Below are positions 3,171 through 59,646 of a stretch of DNA of 64,000 bases, piece by piece. The notes below the pieces were generated by a model. That model did no database searches and was not told the origin of the DNA. It saw nothing but the letters and a program-made list of their open reading frames with translations. The translations under genes and the position numbers were made by a program. Source of the stretch: Escherichia phage JY01; sequence record OR995200.1; one strand, given 5' to 3'. Position 1 is the stretch's first letter, and each line of letters begins with the position of its first letter.

Positions 3171-3317
3171 TTAAAAATTCTCGTTAGAGATTAAAACTCG
3201 GTAGTCACGTTCTTCTGAATTTCATCTTCTTTCGACAGATCTCTCAGTTGTAGACTACCACATAGAATTGTTCGGTTAACTTATTATTCCGACACCCAAT
3301 TCATATTATTATTTATA

Positions 3318-9309: not shown

Positions 9310-10897
<1,588 letters not shown>

Positions 10898-17683: not shown

Positions 17684-17790
17684 TTTATTCTCCTTAGCAA
17701 GCTTTAATCAAAAGATATAAACAAACTAACATAACTGCTGCCATAATATAAGGTGCGAACATTTTCTTTTCTCCATTAGTTTTGATAGGG

Positions 17791-17823
17791 TAATAGTATC
17801 ACACTACTACCCTGCTGTAAACT
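17791..17823 (-). promoter_or_regulatory. T4-type early promoter module
   Basis: GTTTAC at 17818-17823 with conserved -10 and leader. Confidence 0.5.
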
Positions 17824-18256
17824 ACTTTTTGAAAGTTTTTCGCAAAAGTTCAATGATTCGATCTACATTGTTTTCGTCAACGATGCAGTGAATTTTTGTT
17901 ACGCCAGAAATCGTGTCTTCGCCTTCATCTTCAGAAATCGGTTCTTTATACTCGCGAAAGCAATAAAATTCGTCTTCGCAAATTTCTGAAAGTCTATCAC
18001 AAAAGTAAAAATGTTTTCCATTGGCGCATTCAATATGTTTTACTGCTTTAAATCCATTATTAAAGAAAACTTCTTTAACTTCAAACCATCCACCATTTTC
18101 TTTGATAATTTTAACTATCGATCCATTAGAACGTGGGCTATGACTAATAAATGCGTCAATGAGACTTGGAACAAGTTCATACTTTTTACCGATATACATT
18201 TTCTTTTCCTCATTTTTAACGGGGTTATTGATAGCCCCTTGATAATTATTGTTCAA
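17822..18256 (-). CDS. hypothetical Cys-rich protein
   Basis: 144-aa ORF; the true start may be the internal MYIGKKYEL. Confidence 0.4.
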
Positions 18257-21893: not shown

Positions 21894-24800
21894 ATGGCCG
21901 AGATTAAAAGAAAGTTCAGAGCAGAAGACGGTCTGGACGCAGGTGGTGATAAAATAATCAACGTAGCTTTAGCTGATCGTACCGTAGGAACTGACGGTGT
22001 AAACGTTGATTACTTAATTCAAGAAAACACAGTTCAACAATATGATCCAACTCGTGGATATTTAAAAGATTTTGTAATCATTTATGATAACCGCTTTTGG
22101 GCTGCTATAAATGATATTCCAAAACCAGCAGGAGCTTTTAATAGCGTACGATGGAGAGCGTTACGCACTGATGCAAACTGGACAACTGTTTCGTCAGGAC
22201 CTTATCAATTAAAATCAGGCGAATCGATTTCAGTTAACACCGCAGCGGGTAATGACATTACATTTACTTTGCCATCTTCTCCAATTGATGGTGATACTAT
22301 CGTTCTCCAAGATATTGGAGGAAAACCTGGAGTTAACCAGGTTTTAATTACAGCTCCGGTACAAAGCATTGTAAACTTTAGAGGTCAACAAGTACGCTCA
22401 GTACTAATGACTCATCCAAAATCACAGATAGTTTTAATTTTTAGTAATCGTCTGTGGCAAATGTATGTTGCTGATTATAGCAGAGAAGCGGCAGTTGTAA
22501 CACCGGCAAGTCTTTATCAAGCGCAATCAAACGATTTTATCGTGCGTAGATTTACTTCTGCTTCAGCAATTAATATTAAACTTCCAAGATTTGCTAATCA
22601 TGGCGATATTATTAATTTCGTTGATTTGGATAAATTAAATCCACTTTATCACACAATTGTTACCACATACGACGAAACGACTTCAGTACAAGAAGTTGGA
22701 ACTCATTCCATTGAAGGTCGTACATCTATTGATGGTTTCTTGATGTTTGATGATAATGAGAAATTGTGGAGATTGTTTGACGGGGATAGTAAAGCACGTT
22801 TACGCATTATAACGACTAATTCTAATATTCGTCCAAATGAAGAAGTCATGGTATTTGGCGCAAATAATGGAACAACCCAAACAATTGAACTTCAGCTTCC
22901 AACTGATATTTCTATCGGTGATACTGTTAAGATTTCCATGAATTATATGAGAAAAGGACAAACAGTTAAAATCAAAGCTGCCGGTGAAGATAAAATTGCT
23001 TCTTCAGTTCAATTGCTGCAATTTCCAAAACGTTCAGAATACCCACCTGAAACTAAATGGGTGACTGTTCAAGAATTAGTTTTTAATGGCGAAACCAATT
23101 ATGTTCCAGTTTTACAGCTTGCTTATATCGAAGATTCCGATGGAAAATATTGGGTTGTACAGCAAAACGTTCCAACTGTAGAAAGAGTAGACTCTTTAAA
23201 TAATTCTACTAGAGCAAGATTAGGCGTAATTGCTTTAGCTACACAGGCTCAAGCTAATGCTGATCTAGAAAATTCTCCACAAAAAGAATTGGCAATTACT
23301 CCAGAAACGTTAGCTAATCGTACTGCTACAGAAACTCGTAGAGGTATTGCAAGAATAGCAACAACTGCGCAAGTAAACCAGGATACCACATTCTCTTTTG
23401 CTGATGATATTATCATCACTCCTAAAAAGCTGAATGAAAGAACAGCTACTGAAACTCGCAGAGGTGTTGCTGAAATTGCTACGCAGCAAGAAACTAATGC
23501 AGGAACCGATGATACTACAATCATCACTCCTAAAAAGCTTCAAGCCCGCCAGGGTTCTGAGTCATTATCTGGTATTGTAACTTTTGTATCTACTGCAGGT
23601 GCTACTCCAGCTTCTAGCCGTGAATTAAATGGTACGAATGTTTATAATAAAAACACTAATAATTTAGTTGTTTCGCCAAAAGCTTTGGACCAGTATAAAG
23701 CTACGCCTACTCAACAGGGTGCAGTAATTTTAGCAGTTGAAAGTGAAGTAATTGCTGGTCAAAGTCAAGAAGGATGGGCAAATGCTGTTGTAACGCCAGA
23801 AACGTTACACAAAAAGACATCAACTGATGGAAGAATTGGATTAATTGAAATTGCTACGCAAAGTGAAGTTAATACAGGAACTGATTATACTCGTGCAGTC
23901 ACTCCTAAAACTTTAAATGACCGTAGAGCAACTGAAAGTTTAAGTGGTATAGCTGAAATTGCTACACAAGTTGAATTCGACGCAGGCGTCGACGATACTC
24001 GTATCTCTACACCATTAAAAATTAAAACTAGATTTAATAGTACTGATCGTACTTCTGTTGTTGCTCTATCTGGATTAGTTGAATCAGGAACTCTCTGGGA
24101 CCATTATACCCTTAATATTCTTGAAGCAAATGAGACACAACGTGGTACACTTCGTGTAGCTACACAAGTTGAAGCTGCTGCAGGAACATTAGATAATGTT
24201 TTAATAACTCCTAAAAAGCTTTTAGGTACTAAATCTACTGAAGCGCAAGAAGGTGTTATTAAAGTTGCAACACAAACCGAAACTGTTGCTGGAACATCGG
24301 CAAATACTGCTGTATCTCCAAAAAATTTAAAATGGATTGTGCAGAGTGAACCTACTTGGGCAGCTACTACTGCAGTAAGAGGCTTTGTTAAAACTTCATC
24401 TGGTTCAATTACATTCGTTGGTAATGATACAGCCGGTTCTACTCAGGACTTAGAGCTATACGAGAAAAATAGCTATGCAGTATCACCATACGAATTAAAC
24501 CGTGTATTAGCAAATTATTTGCCATTAAAAGCAAAAGCTGCAGATAGTAATTTATTGGATGGTCTAGATTCATCTCAGTTCATTCGTAGGGATATTGCGC
24601 AGACGGTTAATGGTTCACTAACCTTAACTCAACAAACGAATCTGAGTGCCCCTCTTGTATCATCTAGTACTGCTACGTTCGGTGGATCAGTTTCAGCAAA
24701 TAGTACATTAACTATTTCTAATACTGGAACAGCAACTCGATTGATTTTTGAGAAAGGACCTCAAACTGGAACAAACCCAGCCCAAACGATGACTGTTAGA

Positions 24801-26949: not shown

Positions 26950-27606
26950 ATGGCTGATTTAAAAGTAGGTTCAACAACTGGAGGCTCTGTCATTTGGCAT
27001 CAAGGAAATTTTCCATTGAATCCAGCCGGTGACGATGTACTCTATAAATCATTTAAAATATATTCAGAATACAATAAACCGCAAGCGGCTGATAACGATT
27101 TCGTTTCTAAAGCTAATGGTGGTACTTATTTAAATAAAGTAATTTTTAATAAAGGAATGACTGTTCCTGGTGCTGGGTCAGGTGACAACGGTATTTTTGC
27201 CGGTCCTGGTGATAATGCCACATATGATACTACAAATATGGATATTGTTTCATGGTATGGTATCGGCTTTAAATCATCACAAGGGGCAGCAGGTAGAACT
27301 GTAGTAATTAACACACGAAACGGAGATATTAGCTCAAAGGGTGTAATTGAAGCATCACAAATACGCGCAACTTCGTTATCACCAGTAAATAATTATGACC
27401 TTACGAGAAAAGATTATGTTGATGGGGCAATAAATATTGTTACAACAAATGCAAACTCTAGAGTATTACGCTCTGGAGACACTATGACAGGAAATTTAAC
27501 TGCGCCAAACCTTTTTTCACAGAATCCTGCATCTCAACCCTCGCATGTTCCGCGATTTGACCAAATCGTAATTAAGGATTCTGTTCAAGATTTCGGCTAT
27601 TATTAA
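26950..27606 (+). CDS. 36: gp36 long tail fibre distal connector
   Basis: 218 aa; TATAAATA late promoter at 26919-26926. Confidence 0.9.
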   Translation: MADLKVGSTTGGSVIWHQGNFPLNPAGDDVLYKSFKIYSEYNKPQAADNDFVSKANGGTYLNKVIFNKGMTVPGAGSGDNGIFAGPGDNATYDTTNMDIVSWYGIGFKSSQGAAGRTVVINTRNGDISSKGVIEASQIRATSLSPVNNYDLTRKDYVDGAINIVTTNANSRVLRSGDTMTGNLTAPNLFSQNPASQPSHVPRFDQIVIKDSVQDFGYY

Positions 27607-56662: not shown

Positions 56663-57181
56663 TTAATAACCTCGGTCTTGACGTGCGAAATTTTCAGCAT
56701 TTTTCAGGTAATAAAGTTTAAAGATTTCTTCTGCTGTAAGACCAAGACCTTGGAACATATTCAGAACGAAATGGAGAATATCAATCATTTCAAATTTAAT
56801 TTCCAGTTGGTCTTGTGGAGACAAATCAGTAATCAGAGTTTCACGACGTTCACCATGCTGCGACTTCCAAGGTTTCCATACAGCAGATGCATCTTTTTCA
56901 CCATTGCTCATACCACCAAGAGAAGTCAGAAGTTCGCGGAATTCATCATCAATATAATCTTTCTGATTACGCATCCAATCAACAACTTCACCTGCAGTAG
57001 CCAAATCATCAGGATGACGGTTATATTCAGGTTTATCTTTAGCTAAACGAACCTGTAAAGATTTCTGCATATCAAGCATAACTTGCAGCGGGTCTTTTTC
57101 ATCACCGAGAATATCCCAATATTCATTTTGAGCTTTATCAGCGCCTTCAATCAGTTGTGAACATTCGTTAAAGTAAGCCAT
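56663..57181 (-). CDS. 56: dCTP pyrophosphatase (MazG-like)
   Basis: 172 aa from MAYFNECSQ; track ORF has a 31-codon hydrophobic extension that is probably not translated. Confidence 0.8.
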   Translation of the reverse strand: MAYFNECSQLIEGADKAQNEYWDILGDEKDPLQVMLDMQKSLQVRLAKDKPEYNRHPDDLATAGEVVDWMRNQKDYIDDEFRELLTSLGGMSNGEKDASAVWKPWKSQHGERRETLITDLSPQDQLEIKFEMIDILHFVLNMFQGLGLTAEEIFKLYYLKNAENFARQDRGY

Positions 57182-57252
57182 TATTTTTCCTTTCAATTCA
57201 TGGGTTAGTAGATTAATTATACAATAAATATATAAAGCAATAAGGAGGACAT

Positions 57253-57453
57253 ATGGTACAAAAATTAATGGCACTTGTTAATGCCATCAAAGGTAATAAG
57301 AAACGTATAGCTTTTACTATTTCTGCTATGGTAGGAATTTTACTCTGGAACTTTATTTTATCACCAATTGCAATTGCACATGGTGTTAATATTCCAGTAG
57401 TTACTCTTGATACATTTGTAGATTTAGCATTTGCTTTAGTTGGGTTAATTTAA
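57253..57453 (+). CDS. small two-helix membrane protein (plus strand, late-type promoter)
   Basis: 66 aa with two hydrophobic segments; strong SD AAGGAGGA 5 nt upstream; TATAAA-type late-promoter-like sequence upstream; convergent with gene 61. Confidence 0.45.
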   Translation: MVQKLMALVNAIKGNKKRIAFTISAMVGILLWNFILSPIAIAHGVNIPVVTLDTFVDLAFALVGLI

Positions 57454-58478
57454 ATCTTAGCATATTTAGATAACCGCATTTTAGCCATCAACCCCTGGGC
57501 AATATTATTTTTCATATATTCCATAATTTGTTCAGGGGTTGCACCTTCCTTTCTAATCATATCATTAACATCTTTTGATTTCCAGGGAGATTTATCCCAA
57601 AACATAACCCTTTCTCCTGCATCAACTAATTTAGTCATTCGCTTAATAGTGTCAGGATGACGAGGTTCATTATCTAAGACCCACACACGCCTATCTTTAA
57701 ATGGAACAACTTCTAGGTCTAATTGACCACCCGTAATAGCTATACCATTTTCAATAAAAAGTGAATCTATAGGTCCTTCTAAAACATATACATCACCATC
57801 TTTAACTCGTTCGACTCCATATATTTTTGTTGCCTCAGGATAAGCTTTGATGGTGATATATTTTTGAGGAGCATCTTTCTTTAATGCACGCCCTTGAAAC
57901 GACTCGGCTTTTCCATTAGCATTATAAATTGGAATAACAAGACGAGGCTCAGAAATTTCCTTTTTGTATGTTCCCGGTGCTATGCTATTAACTAATTTAG
58001 GCCATTCGGTTGTAAACCAAAGATATTTCCATTTATCCTTTGGAATACAACGAGCTTTTACATATTTTATAATTGGATGGTCTTCCACCAGTTTATCTAA
58101 TCTAACACATGACTGAAGAGATTTAATTATTTTCTTCTCAGGATGTTTAGGAAGTTCTTTAGGTTTTTCTACTGGACGACTTTTACCTTTTTCTTTTCTT
58201 ATTTCAAAGATATACTCACGATATAAATCAGGTTCAAACTCCTTTAAATATATTCCGATTGGTGCATGATAGTTACAGTTATAACAATGAATATTTCCTT
58301 CATTATTATCACCGTAATACCATCCACGGGCTTTATTCTGGTCGGTTTTTGAATCTCCACAAACAGGGCATCTAAACCGTAATTTAAAAGTTGAACTATT
58401 ATTTACTTGTGTGAATTTAGGTAAATGAGCTAATGCACGATACGCAAACTCATTATCAATCCAAGGTATTGATGACAT
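57450..58478 (-). CDS. 61: DNA primase
   Basis: 342 aa, same as T4 gp61; N-terminal zinc ribbon CPVCGD...CYNC. Confidence 0.95.
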   Translation of the reverse strand: MSSIPWIDNEFAYRALAHLPKFTQVNNSSTFKLRFRCPVCGDSKTDQNKARGWYYGDNNEGNIHCYNCNYHAPIGIYLKEFEPDLYREYIFEIRKEKGKSRPVEKPKELPKHPEKKIIKSLQSCVRLDKLVEDHPIIKYVKARCIPKDKWKYLWFTTEWPKLVNSIAPGTYKKEISEPRLVIPIYNANGKAESFQGRALKKDAPQKYITIKAYPEATKIYGVERVKDGDVYVLEGPIDSLFIENGIAITGGQLDLEVVPFKDRRVWVLDNEPRHPDTIKRMTKLVDAGERVMFWDKSPWKSKDVNDMIRKEGATPEQIMEYMKNNIAQGLMAKMRLSKYAKI

Positions 58479-58646: not shown

Positions 58647-59003
58647 TTAACCTCTATTCATAAAAGCATTAAAAATTTGGTCATCAATAGATGGAATAGC
58701 AACCTTTTCGGCATCATTTAGCAAATCATTAATTTCATCAGATAGCATAACACATGTGCCTTTATTTCCTGTAATTGTTACTGCGCAATTACGAACGTTT
58801 TCTTTATCAAATTTTAGGTTAATATTTTCGTAGTGAAAATCCTTTAATGCCGAATATATCTTTAAAATGAAATTGTCTTTTACTACAATAAACCCAACCT
58901 CACTATTAAAACGTGGTTCATGGAAACTGTAATAAACCTTTTCATCTATAAAATCGTATGAAATTTTTTCCATTTTTAAATATGAAAATTCAGAACTATA
59001 CAT
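58647..59003 (-). CDS. hypothetical protein (61.x)
   Basis: 118 aa; C-terminus IDDQIFNAFMNRG shared with the next ORF. Confidence 0.5.
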   Translation of the reverse strand: MYSSEFSYLKMEKISYDFIDEKVYYSFHEPRFNSEVGFIVVKDNFILKIYSALKDFHYENINLKFDKENVRNCAVTITGNKGTCVMLSDEINDLLNDAEKVAIPSIDDQIFNAFMNRG

Positions 59004-59004
59004 A

Positions 59005-59646
59005 TTAACCTTTATTCATAAAAGCATTAAAAATTTGATCGTCAATAGAAACTTTTACTTTAGGCTGTTCTTCAAACGGTAATTCATATCCACATATTAC
59101 AATTTTGTGATCAATATCAAAATACACAGAAGAAATATGATTAATGATGTTTTCAGTAAAGTCTAAATCAACATCAATATCTTTTTGACCACAGCCCAAA
59201 GGATAAATAATGCGAGTAATTCGATTATCTTTAACAAATATTCCACCGACATACTCTGTGCTGCGTTTAAAGTTTACACGTTTCCTAAATGAAAAATATT
59301 CAGGCTCTCTATGAGCTCGGCTCATAGGACACAACGAGTAACTAGAATAAGAGATGTCAAATCCTACACCTTCAATATGAGCCAACGCGTCATGATTAAA
59401 CCAATTATAATCGTACGCCAAATCCATTATATTGTAATATGTGAAAGGCACCGGATTAACATCATGCGTTGTACCTTTAAAATCTGCCCAGGCAACGATT
59501 TCGTTATCTTTAACAATTACAAAAATTGTGCCAATAAGATATCCACGGTTATTTTCATCAGGCGTTATATTATAACATTGTGCACCAGGAAATTTACCGT
59601 ATTTAAACGGTGGATTTTTGTGCATATAATAAATCATATTATTCAC
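59005..59646 (-). CDS. hypothetical protein (61.x)
   Basis: 213 aa; C-terminus IDDQIFNAFMNKG. Confidence 0.5.
   Translation of the reverse strand: MNNMIYYMHKNPPFKYGKFPGAQCYNITPDENNRGYLIGTIFVIVKDNEIVAWADFKGTTHDVNPVPFTYYNIMDLAYDYNWFNHDALAHIEGVGFDISYSSYSLCPMSRAHREPEYFSFRKRVNFKRSTEYVGGIFVKDNRITRIIYPLGCGQKDIDVDLDFTENIINHISSVYFDIDHKIVICGYELPFEEQPKVKVSIDDQIFNAFMNKG

Follow-up and report, generated by a model that had tools for sequence, protein, structure and literature searches.

The small plus-strand open reading frame between gene 56 and gene 61 of Escherichia phage JY01 (OR995200.1) is almost certainly a real protein-coding gene. It extends from the ATG at 57253 to the TAA at 57451-57453 of the 64,000-nucleotide stretch of DNA analysed here (the window). 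It encodes a small membrane protein of 66 amino acids, MVQKLMALVNAIKGNKKRIAFTISAMVGILLWNFILSPIAIAHGVNIPVVTLDTFVDLAFALVGLI, which is the orthologue of RB32ORF030w and RB68_032 and belongs to PHROG 2024. The best explanation as a whole, namely that the ORF is an accessory late gene of the enterobacterial Tevenvirinae, is considered probable. With regard to function, the best guess, made with low confidence, is an accessory role late in infection, in which the protein would modulate a step of lysis timing or of the envelope. The gene is already catalogued as 'hypothetical' in hundreds of relatives and is functionally uncharacterised.

The window belongs to a Tequatrovirus. Over its 56.6-58.5 kb region it shares 99.9% identity with Escherichia phage ECML-363, and identity with many other Tequatroviruses is 96-98%. 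On the left the ORF is bordered by gene 56, encoding dCTPase (56663..57181, minus strand), which was identified from the gp56 annotation in relatives. The 203-aa ORF listed at gene 56 is an upstream extension, and the true start of the protein is MAYFNEC. The right neighbour is the primase gene, gene 61 (57450..58478, minus strand). The 66-aa ORF and gene 61 are convergent and have four nucleotides in common (TTAA, 57450-57453), so that their stop codons overlap. A preliminary description of this DNA had placed a plus-strand ORF of 66 aa among minus-strand early genes, with its 3' end overlapping that of gene 61, and both points were confirmed. The local G+C content is 35%, and shadow ORFs longer than 66 codons sit opposite genuine genes nearby. 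In such AT-rich DNA the length of the ORF is not significant by itself, and the case for a gene is made by its position, Shine-Dalgarno sequence and promoter box taken together with purifying selection and synteny.

A tblastn search matched 692 phage records, and in 686 of them at least 80% of the length of the ORF was preserved intact. The count of records with the ORF rose to about 750 once divergent versions from other genera were added. Homologues of 60-68 aa, with 18-55% identity, are found at syntenic positions in at least seven clades of the Tevenvirinae, including Tequatro-, Mosig-, Gapriver-, Dhaka-, Jiaoda- and Moonvirus and the Klebsiella/Kosakonia (KLB31-like) clade. In these clades the homologue is always on the plus strand and converges on the 3' end of the primase gene. 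The left neighbour varies, being dam in T4, gene 56 in JY01 and a homing endonuclease or other ORFs elsewhere, and in DK-13 a homing endonuclease lies between the ORF and the primase gene. Conservation in related phages, on which the preliminary description had made its reading depend, was thus observed. The ORF was not found downstream of the primase gene in Roskilde-, Gualtar-, Biquarta-, Lazarus- and Slopekvirus. A same-strand gene follows the primase gene after 2-8 nt in Roskilde-, Gualtar-, Lazarus- and Slopekvirus, leaving no room for the ORF, and after a gap of 113 nt in Biquartavirus. Since these distant Straboviridae have no space for it, the ORF is regarded as a clade-restricted accessory gene.

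The ORF is under purifying selection. Pairwise dN/dS values (Nei-Gojobori, NG86) were 0.12-0.22 within Tequatrovirus and Mosigvirus, whereas Gaprivervirus gave 0.3-0.7. Variable sites within clades were distributed over codon positions 1, 2 and 3 in the ratio 29:7:35 (chi-square p = 1e-4), and the changes at position 1 were mainly I/V/L swaps. These values bear on the explanation that the ORF is incidental, the conserved feature being either a set of minus-strand regulatory elements (the 3' UTR and terminator of gene 61 and the promoter of the downstream gene) or an antisense RNA directed against the gene 61/56 transcripts. Elements of this kind are present at the locus. A minus-strand terminator-like hairpin lies within codons 5-13 of the ORF (57290..57265) and is annotated as a terminator in the record of fPS-65, a MotA-type middle promoter overlaps the 5' leader, and a late transcript in Tequatrovirus must enter gene 61 in the antisense direction. 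However, the hairpin occurs in Tequatrovirus only and was for that reason rejected as the cause of conservation, whereas the protein is conserved across clades despite diverged nucleotide sequences. Codon position 2 is largely spared by substitutions, dN/dS remains far under 1 over the full length of the ORF, and a scan of Rfam gave sub-threshold chance matches only. Furthermore, the ORF stands apart from gene 61 in DK-13, EAWsc9 and Jiaodavirus, and an antisense overlap is therefore not required. Taking these points together, an incidental ORF is considered extremely improbable; an added antisense effect of its RNA may exist.

The ORF is also present in the reference genome of T4 (AF158101.6), at 17738..17938 between dam and gene 61, with 97% amino acid identity. 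No feature is annotated in AF158101.6 at these coordinates, and the exact T4 version of the protein has no NCBI protein accession. The remark in the preliminary description that the ORF is not among the named T4 genes was thus correct, the gene being encoded in the reference genome but left without annotation. A re-annotation of T4 from the 2020s (OZ209023.1) does call the ORF. No paper on the ORF came to light when the literature was searched by locus name, by peptide sequence and for ribosome profiling of T4. That the T4 reference omits the gene is the most useful result of the present analysis. T4 serves as the reference for the whole phage family, its curated gene list lacks a conserved and probably late gene, and many functional-genomics studies, including a transposon screen from 2025, rely on that list. 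Adding the ORF would close this annotation gap and would supply one more small membrane protein for study in T-even lysis timing and envelope control, of which the picture is incomplete. In practical terms the gain is modest, because the gene is a catalogued 'hypothetical' and is dispensable in the laboratory.

The evidence for dispensability comes from the close relative Bas37. The gene bas37_0144 encodes a 'hypothetical protein', is 201 nt long, lies on the plus strand at 91945..92145 and shares 4 nt with the end of the primase gene. It is a putative orthologue of the ORF, assigned by size, strand, position and this 4-nt overlap. In the HIDEN-SEQ transposon study, insertions were recovered at 20 of the 24 TA sites of bas37_0144, and the gene was classed as Non-essential (bioRxiv 10.1101/2025.11.20.689424). 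Of the six host comparisons, the three considered here gave log2 fold changes of +0.33, +0.20 and -0.28 for the gene, each with q = 1 (bioRxiv 10.1101/2025.11.20.689424). The mean read count per TA site was 119.5 in bas37_0144, compared with 0.0 in the dCTPase gene, 5.5 in the primase gene, 16.2 in rI and 10.4 in the endolysin gene, and insertions in rI and e (endolysin) were under-represented in this library (bioRxiv 10.1101/2025.11.20.689424). The Bas37 gene at the position of the ORF, assigned as its orthologue by position and size, is thus dispensable as far as these data extend. For T4 itself the ORF received no score, since the T4 table of HIDEN-SEQ lists no gene between dam and gene 61 (bioRxiv 10.1101/2025.11.20.689424).

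Signals for expression were found directly upstream of the ORF. The Shine-Dalgarno sequence AAGGAGGA (57242-57249, plus strand) ends 3 nt before the ATG. AGGAGG or GGAGG precedes the ORF in 13 of 13 representative loci, in agreement with the strong Shine-Dalgarno sequence noted previously. A late (gp55-type) promoter box, AATAAATA, is located on the plus strand at 57223-57230, 22 nt before the ATG, and is the A(-13) variant of TATAAATA. T4 late promoters have their box at -13 to -6, with a poorly conserved T(-13) (PMC1524935), and A(-13) is the commonest deviation among them, being found at 9 of 50 sites (PMC2988020). By these descriptions of late genes (PMC1524935, PMC2988020), AATAAATA represents a TATAAATA-like box at -13 to -6 that stands immediately before the gene and lacks a -35 element. 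Thirteen representative loci, taken from seven clades with differing left neighbours, were compared, and in 12 of them the core NATAAATA was found 12-22 nt before the start codon; the spacer around it is otherwise diverged and not alignable between clades. The exception is CF1, with an extra mismatch in the box (ATTAAATA). Position -13 is A, G or C in every clade and never T, and because of this general deviation from the consensus the late promoter of the ORF may be weak.

The frequency of such boxes in the window was also determined. On both strands of the 64-kb stretch the ATAAATA heptamer occurs at 12 sites, compared with 36.4 +/- 6.5 expected, and this three-fold depletion is as expected if selection acts against stray late promoters. 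At five of the 12 NATAAATA sites, a Shine-Dalgarno sequence with start codon and ORF follows at a distance of 18-34 nt. One of these sites precedes a 1289-aa ORF at 21894, which is gene 34 by size, and another a 218-aa ORF at 26950. Two more precede the Pfam-confirmed holin gene t, with the same AATAAATA variant as the 66-aa ORF, and soc (minus strand), a Pfam-confirmed late gene. The fifth is the box of the 66-aa ORF itself.

The preliminary description had pointed to a TATAAA-type sequence as the late-promoter-like element. A late-type box is indeed present, but it is AATAAATA and not TATAAA. The TATAAA at 57231-57236 (plus strand) is better taken as the complement of a MotA box, belonging to a divergent minus-strand promoter. 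This is a middle promoter for gene 56, TGCTTTA-N11-TATAAT (57239..57216, minus strand), with a perfect MotA box and a -10 element when compared with the published MotA box and middle-promoter consensus (PMC2988021). The 71-nt spacer between gene 56 and the ORF would therefore hold back-to-back middle and late promoters. In T4 all early and middle transcripts run counter-clockwise (PMC2988020), and only the late polarity is consequently available to a plus-strand gene. Judged from box and polarity, the ORF is very probably transcribed late, with a predicted start near 57236 and a leader of 17 nt.

The late polarity is relevant for a second role suggested in the preliminary description, that of a superinfection-exclusion membrane protein. 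It was considered here as an exclusion or immunity protein comparable with Imm and Sp. The protein is of the right kind, being a small membrane protein, and T4 sp is found about 1.8 kb away in the same gene 61 cluster. However, the action of Imm and Sp begins within the first minutes after infection. Expression early in infection from the counter-clockwise strand would be expected of a protein of this type, whereas the ORF is clockwise, on the strand that is transcribed only late (polarity according to PMC2988020), and carries a late-type box. Superinfection exclusion is thus a poor fit with a gene that can be transcribed only late. The protein matched no PHROG besides 2024, and insertions in the Bas37 gene were neutral in three of the six host comparisons. 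A role in exclusion is accordingly rated as very improbable.

The 3' end of the late transcript is less well defined. A candidate stem-loop was assigned with low confidence to 57489..57541 on the plus strand, inside the 3' coding end of gene 61. The stem predicted by RNAfold has 19 bp and is interrupted, CAACCCCUGGGCAA...UUGUUCAGGGGUUG, and a pyrimidine-rich tract follows it. Analogous stems were found in Mosigvirus and in a KLB31-like phage, and none in Dhaka-, Jiaoda- and Moonvirus. RNAalifold across all clades gave no consensus terminator or hairpin downstream of the ORF. In Jiaodavirus and in Gaprivervirus EAWsc9 a separate hairpin is located directly after the stop codon of the ORF, which is consistent with a self-contained transcription unit.

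The product of the ORF has a hydrophobic segment in every clade, with a Kyte-Doolittle 19-residue maximum of 1.65-2.66 and a K/R cluster directly before the segment. AlphaFold2, using an alignment of 18 sequences, predicted helices at residues 2-13, 16-42 and 52-63 with a mean pLDDT of 78.8 and a pTM of 0.49. The transmembrane (TM) segment comprises residues ~19-42 and was scored at -2.4 to +3.6 kcal/mol on the Hessa scale, and the C-terminal tail at +5 to +11 kcal/mol. With such values the C-terminal tail should not span the membrane. The designation as a small membrane protein was therefore upheld, with one predicted TM helix. The preliminary description had counted two hydrophobic helices, of which one is a clear TM segment; the other, helix 52-63, is short, acidic and amphipathic and is not predicted to be membrane-spanning. 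By the positive-inside rule for the orientation of membrane proteins, the N-terminus would be cytoplasmic and the last ~22 residues periplasmic or interfacial. From hydropathy, charge distribution and the AlphaFold model, with its pTM of only 0.49, the product is in all likelihood a single-pass protein of the inner membrane.

Conservation within the protein is unevenly distributed. W32, P38, G44, K/R18 and D/E53 are invariant in 17 of 17 natural representatives, and N33 and P48 are each present in 16. [quoted passage not shown] Conservation of this kind suggests that the protein makes a specific contact close to the periplasmic leaflet. For the 22 residues at the C-terminus, which end in ...ALVGLI, the mean Kyte-Doolittle value is +1.8 and the net charge -2. 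Across the family the C-terminus is hydrophobic and net acidic or neutral.

An alternative reading of the same residues is that the N-terminal 42 residues serve either as a Sec signal peptide that is cleaved off or as an anchor of the SAR type that can be released. The product would then be an acidic hydrophobic peptide of 22-24 residues, HGVNIPVVTLDTFVDLAFALVGLI, freed at the periplasmic face. A basic n-region, a hydrophobic h-region and the invariant P38 are followed by small residues (A40 in 14 of 17 sequences, A/S/T42 in 16 of 17) and the invariant G44, and P-x-A-x-A is the c-region pattern expected under the -3/-1 rule. The TM segment is moreover rich in Ala, Gly, Ser and Thr and only marginally hydrophobic in several clades (+2 to +3.6 kcal/mol), and its end, F-I-L-S-P-I-A-I-A, resembles F-V-L-S-P-S-I-E-A in the SAR domain of RI. 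However, the resemblance to RI is not statistically significant, the n-region of 18 residues is unusually long, and the proposal comes from pattern reading only. A hydrophobic stretch of 18-24 residues and the one continuous helix of 27 residues in the AlphaFold2 model are more typical of a signal-anchor. Cleavage or release is regarded as quite unlikely, and a single-pass protein that stays anchored in the inner membrane is preferred. Homology with RI by way of FILSPIAIA and FVLSPSIEA was considered separately and rejected, since BLASTP gave E = 0.32 over 6 residues.

Database searches placed the protein in a family of its own. It matched phrog_2024 with E = 1.5e-31, residues 2-66 aligning to profile positions 1-65 of 65, and all 18 aligned family members matched the same PHROG, which is listed with 'unknown function'. 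The identical protein has been deposited as 'hypothetical protein RB68_032' and under similar names and occurs on 154 contigs, and in older RB-phage records the ORF is named RB32ORF030w. An exhaustive profile (HMM) search of 1.84 billion representatives returned eight clusters of ~60-68 aa, all from the ORF's own family. One of these eight clusters, P0076, is apparently a C-to-T-converted artefact. Scans of Pfam and NCBIfam with the protein and 18 family members produced scattered non-significant matches only, a PDB profile search nothing below E = 0.088, and a Foldseek search against viral structures family members only.

The holin/antiholin-like function suggested in the preliminary description was evaluated against these results. 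The protein would in that case be a holin, pinholin or antiholin, and would itself make membrane lesions or prevent them. In favour of this, it is a small protein embedded in the membrane and apparently late, at least one TM domain is present, and the t gene of the JY01 stretch has the same AATAAATA variant upstream. Two database records carry a corresponding label: the OE5505 orthologue is named 'Holin' in UniProt and the EAWsc9 record reads 'holin family protein', and no support for either label was found. On the other side, no holin family was matched by the 18 members in Pfam, NCBIfam or PHROGs, the only hit being GTA_holin_3TM with E = 0.1 for one member of 18. Holins typically end in a hydrophilic, highly charged C-terminal tail, whereas the C-terminus of this protein is hydrophobic without a charged tail. 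The same phage stretch already carries a canonical T holin (Pfam Phage_holin_T, E = 1.6e-116). For an antiholin, neither similarity to RI nor a periplasmic domain of comparable size was found, and the insertions in the Bas37 gene were neutral in three of the six host comparisons. The holin/antiholin proposal was thus left unsupported, although not shown to be wrong, and is considered unlikely.

For the accessory late gene preferred here, the following course of events is proposed. After the onset of DNA replication, gp55-RNA polymerase would initiate at AATAAATA (57223-57230), with a start at ~57236. A short mRNA with a leader of 17 nt and a strong Shine-Dalgarno sequence would then be translated into the 66-aa protein. 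In Tequatrovirus the transcript would continue into gene 61, antisense to the final ~90 nt of that gene, where the stem-loop at 57489-57541 may be its end. The protein would be a bitopic signal-anchor protein in the inner membrane with N-in/C-out orientation. Residues 1-18 are predicted to form a basic amphipathic helix on the cytoplasmic side with the K/R cluster at its end. Residues ~19-42 would form the single TM helix, with the conserved W32, N33, P38 and G44 in its periplasmic half. Residues 45-66 would provide a Pro-containing turn and then a short helix with the invariant acidic D/E53 at the periplasmic face. The partner would be a membrane protein, and action through a specific helix-helix or interfacial contact is envisaged, not bulk membrane damage.

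Since the distribution of conserved residues suggests that a second membrane protein is contacted, the protein is proposed to be a small late modulator of an envelope-associated step, which most likely acts by binding another envelope protein and tuning it. The reality of the gene, its purifying selection and synteny and the promoter and Shine-Dalgarno motifs are established, and its late timing, membrane topology and above all its cellular target are inferred. Lysis timing or lysis inhibition was named as the likeliest target, since this is the main late, membrane-centred and non-essential process of T-even phages. An action on the lysis or lysis-inhibition machinery is nonetheless doubtful, and the comparisons with RI (E = 0.32; no exclusive co-occurrence) gave no support for such a target. 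A more specific version appears decidedly improbable, namely that the ORF encodes a T4 membrane partner of holin T, RI or RIII, or the precursor of a released periplasmic peptide of 22-24 residues, either one serving in the reception or maintenance of the lysis-inhibition signal.

Comparison with known systems was made at four points. T4 Imm and Sp are, like the ORF product, small T-even envelope proteins from the same early-gene neighbourhood. However, they are encoded by early, minus-strand genes, whereas the ORF is a plus-strand gene with a late box, and they share no PHROG and no detectable similarity with the ORF protein. T4 holin T (class III), small class II holins and pinholins resemble the protein in being membrane-embedded and late, and the promoter variant of t is identical (AATAAATA). 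They differ from it in that the ORF protein has a single TM segment, a hydrophobic C-terminus and no match to their families, and in that the ORF is not needed for plaque formation, judging from the Bas37 gene at the same position.

T4 RI, the SAR-domain antiholin that regulates lysis inhibition, is like the ORF product a small protein with a weakly hydrophobic N-terminal membrane segment ending in F-x-L-S-P-x-I-x-A, and both genes are accessory and restricted to enterobacterial T4-like phages. In RI the segment is followed by a holin-binding periplasmic domain of ~70 residues, whereas the ORF protein has only ~22 residues past the TM helix. RI is also more widespread, being found in 1115 records, among them Slopekvirus-sized genomes and clades without the ORF. 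As RI occurs in clades without the ORF, the two do not co-occur exclusively, and a link between them by phylogenetic profile was rejected. In the Bas37 library, insertions were under-represented in rI and not in the gene at the position of the ORF. The fourth comparison is with the RB32ORF030w/RB68_032/bas37_0144 family. This is the same gene, with no sequence difference for RB68-type copies and with the same convergent position on the primase gene.

The MotA-type middle promoter at 57216-57239 on the minus strand, a perfect match to TGCTTTA-N11-TATAAT, was directed toward gene 56, the dCTPase gene. It was found back-to-back with the gp55-type late box of the small plus-strand ORF for a predicted 66-aa inner-membrane protein, and the two elements overlapped in part. 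In Gaprivervirus the MotA box directly overlapped the late box CATAAATA. The frequencies of the two promoter types were calculated over the whole window. The TGCTTTA-N11-TATAAT-type pattern was observed 15 times, compared to 3.6 expected, and the ATAAATA late-promoter core was three-fold depleted (12 observed, 36.4 +/- 6.5 expected). Cores lacking an obvious adjoining gene start included those at 9847, 27430 and 59203 on the plus strand and, on the minus strand, those at 3310, 14687, 19612 and 34507. Of these, the core at 59203(+) was antisense, within minus-strand ORFs.

A terminator-like hairpin of 11 pairs, together with a T-run, was located on the minus strand at 57255-57290, within codons 5-13 of the plus-strand ORF. 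This hairpin is likely a terminator for transcripts of gene 61, the primase gene, and a terminator was annotated at the equivalent site in Yersinia phage fPS-65. It was found in Tequatrovirus only and was absent from other clades. A long plus-strand stem was observed at 57489-57541 in the 3' coding region of the primase gene (codons for ...ATPEQ...AQGL...). G-U pairs of this stem in the plus-strand RNA would become C-A mismatches on the minus-strand mRNA. In Mosigvirus a stem was retained at this position with different inner base pairs.

An exhaustive profile search with the small-ORF family returned, among others, the cluster P0076, whose 61-aa database representative reads as a "variant" of the protein encoded by T4. 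The changes relative to the T4 protein were A-to-V, S/P-to-F/L, T-to-I and H-to-Y, and the representative began at Met6, because Gln3 would turn into a stop. This pattern apparently reflects complete C-to-T conversion, of the kind seen when bisulfite or deaminated reads are assembled. P0076 was regarded as an artefact rather than a natural homologue.

Upstream of 61.1, two ORFs of 118 and 213 aa lie side by side at 58647-59646 on the minus strand. Their C-terminal peptides, SIDDQIFNAFMNRG and SIDDQIFNAFMNKG, were near-identical, which suggests that these ORFs of the 61.2 region may be tandem paralogues or carry a duplicated tail.

The junctions flanking the small ORF are an insertion/deletion hotspot. 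In phage DK-13 a homing endonuclease was inserted between the small ORF and the primase. Gene content at 56663-57453 was compared with the corresponding T4 locus. In T4, dam separates gene 56 from the small ORF, whereas dam is missing from JY01 and gene 56 therefore directly flanks the small ORF. Likewise, segF is located between soc and gene 56 in T4, but is apparently lacking in JY01.
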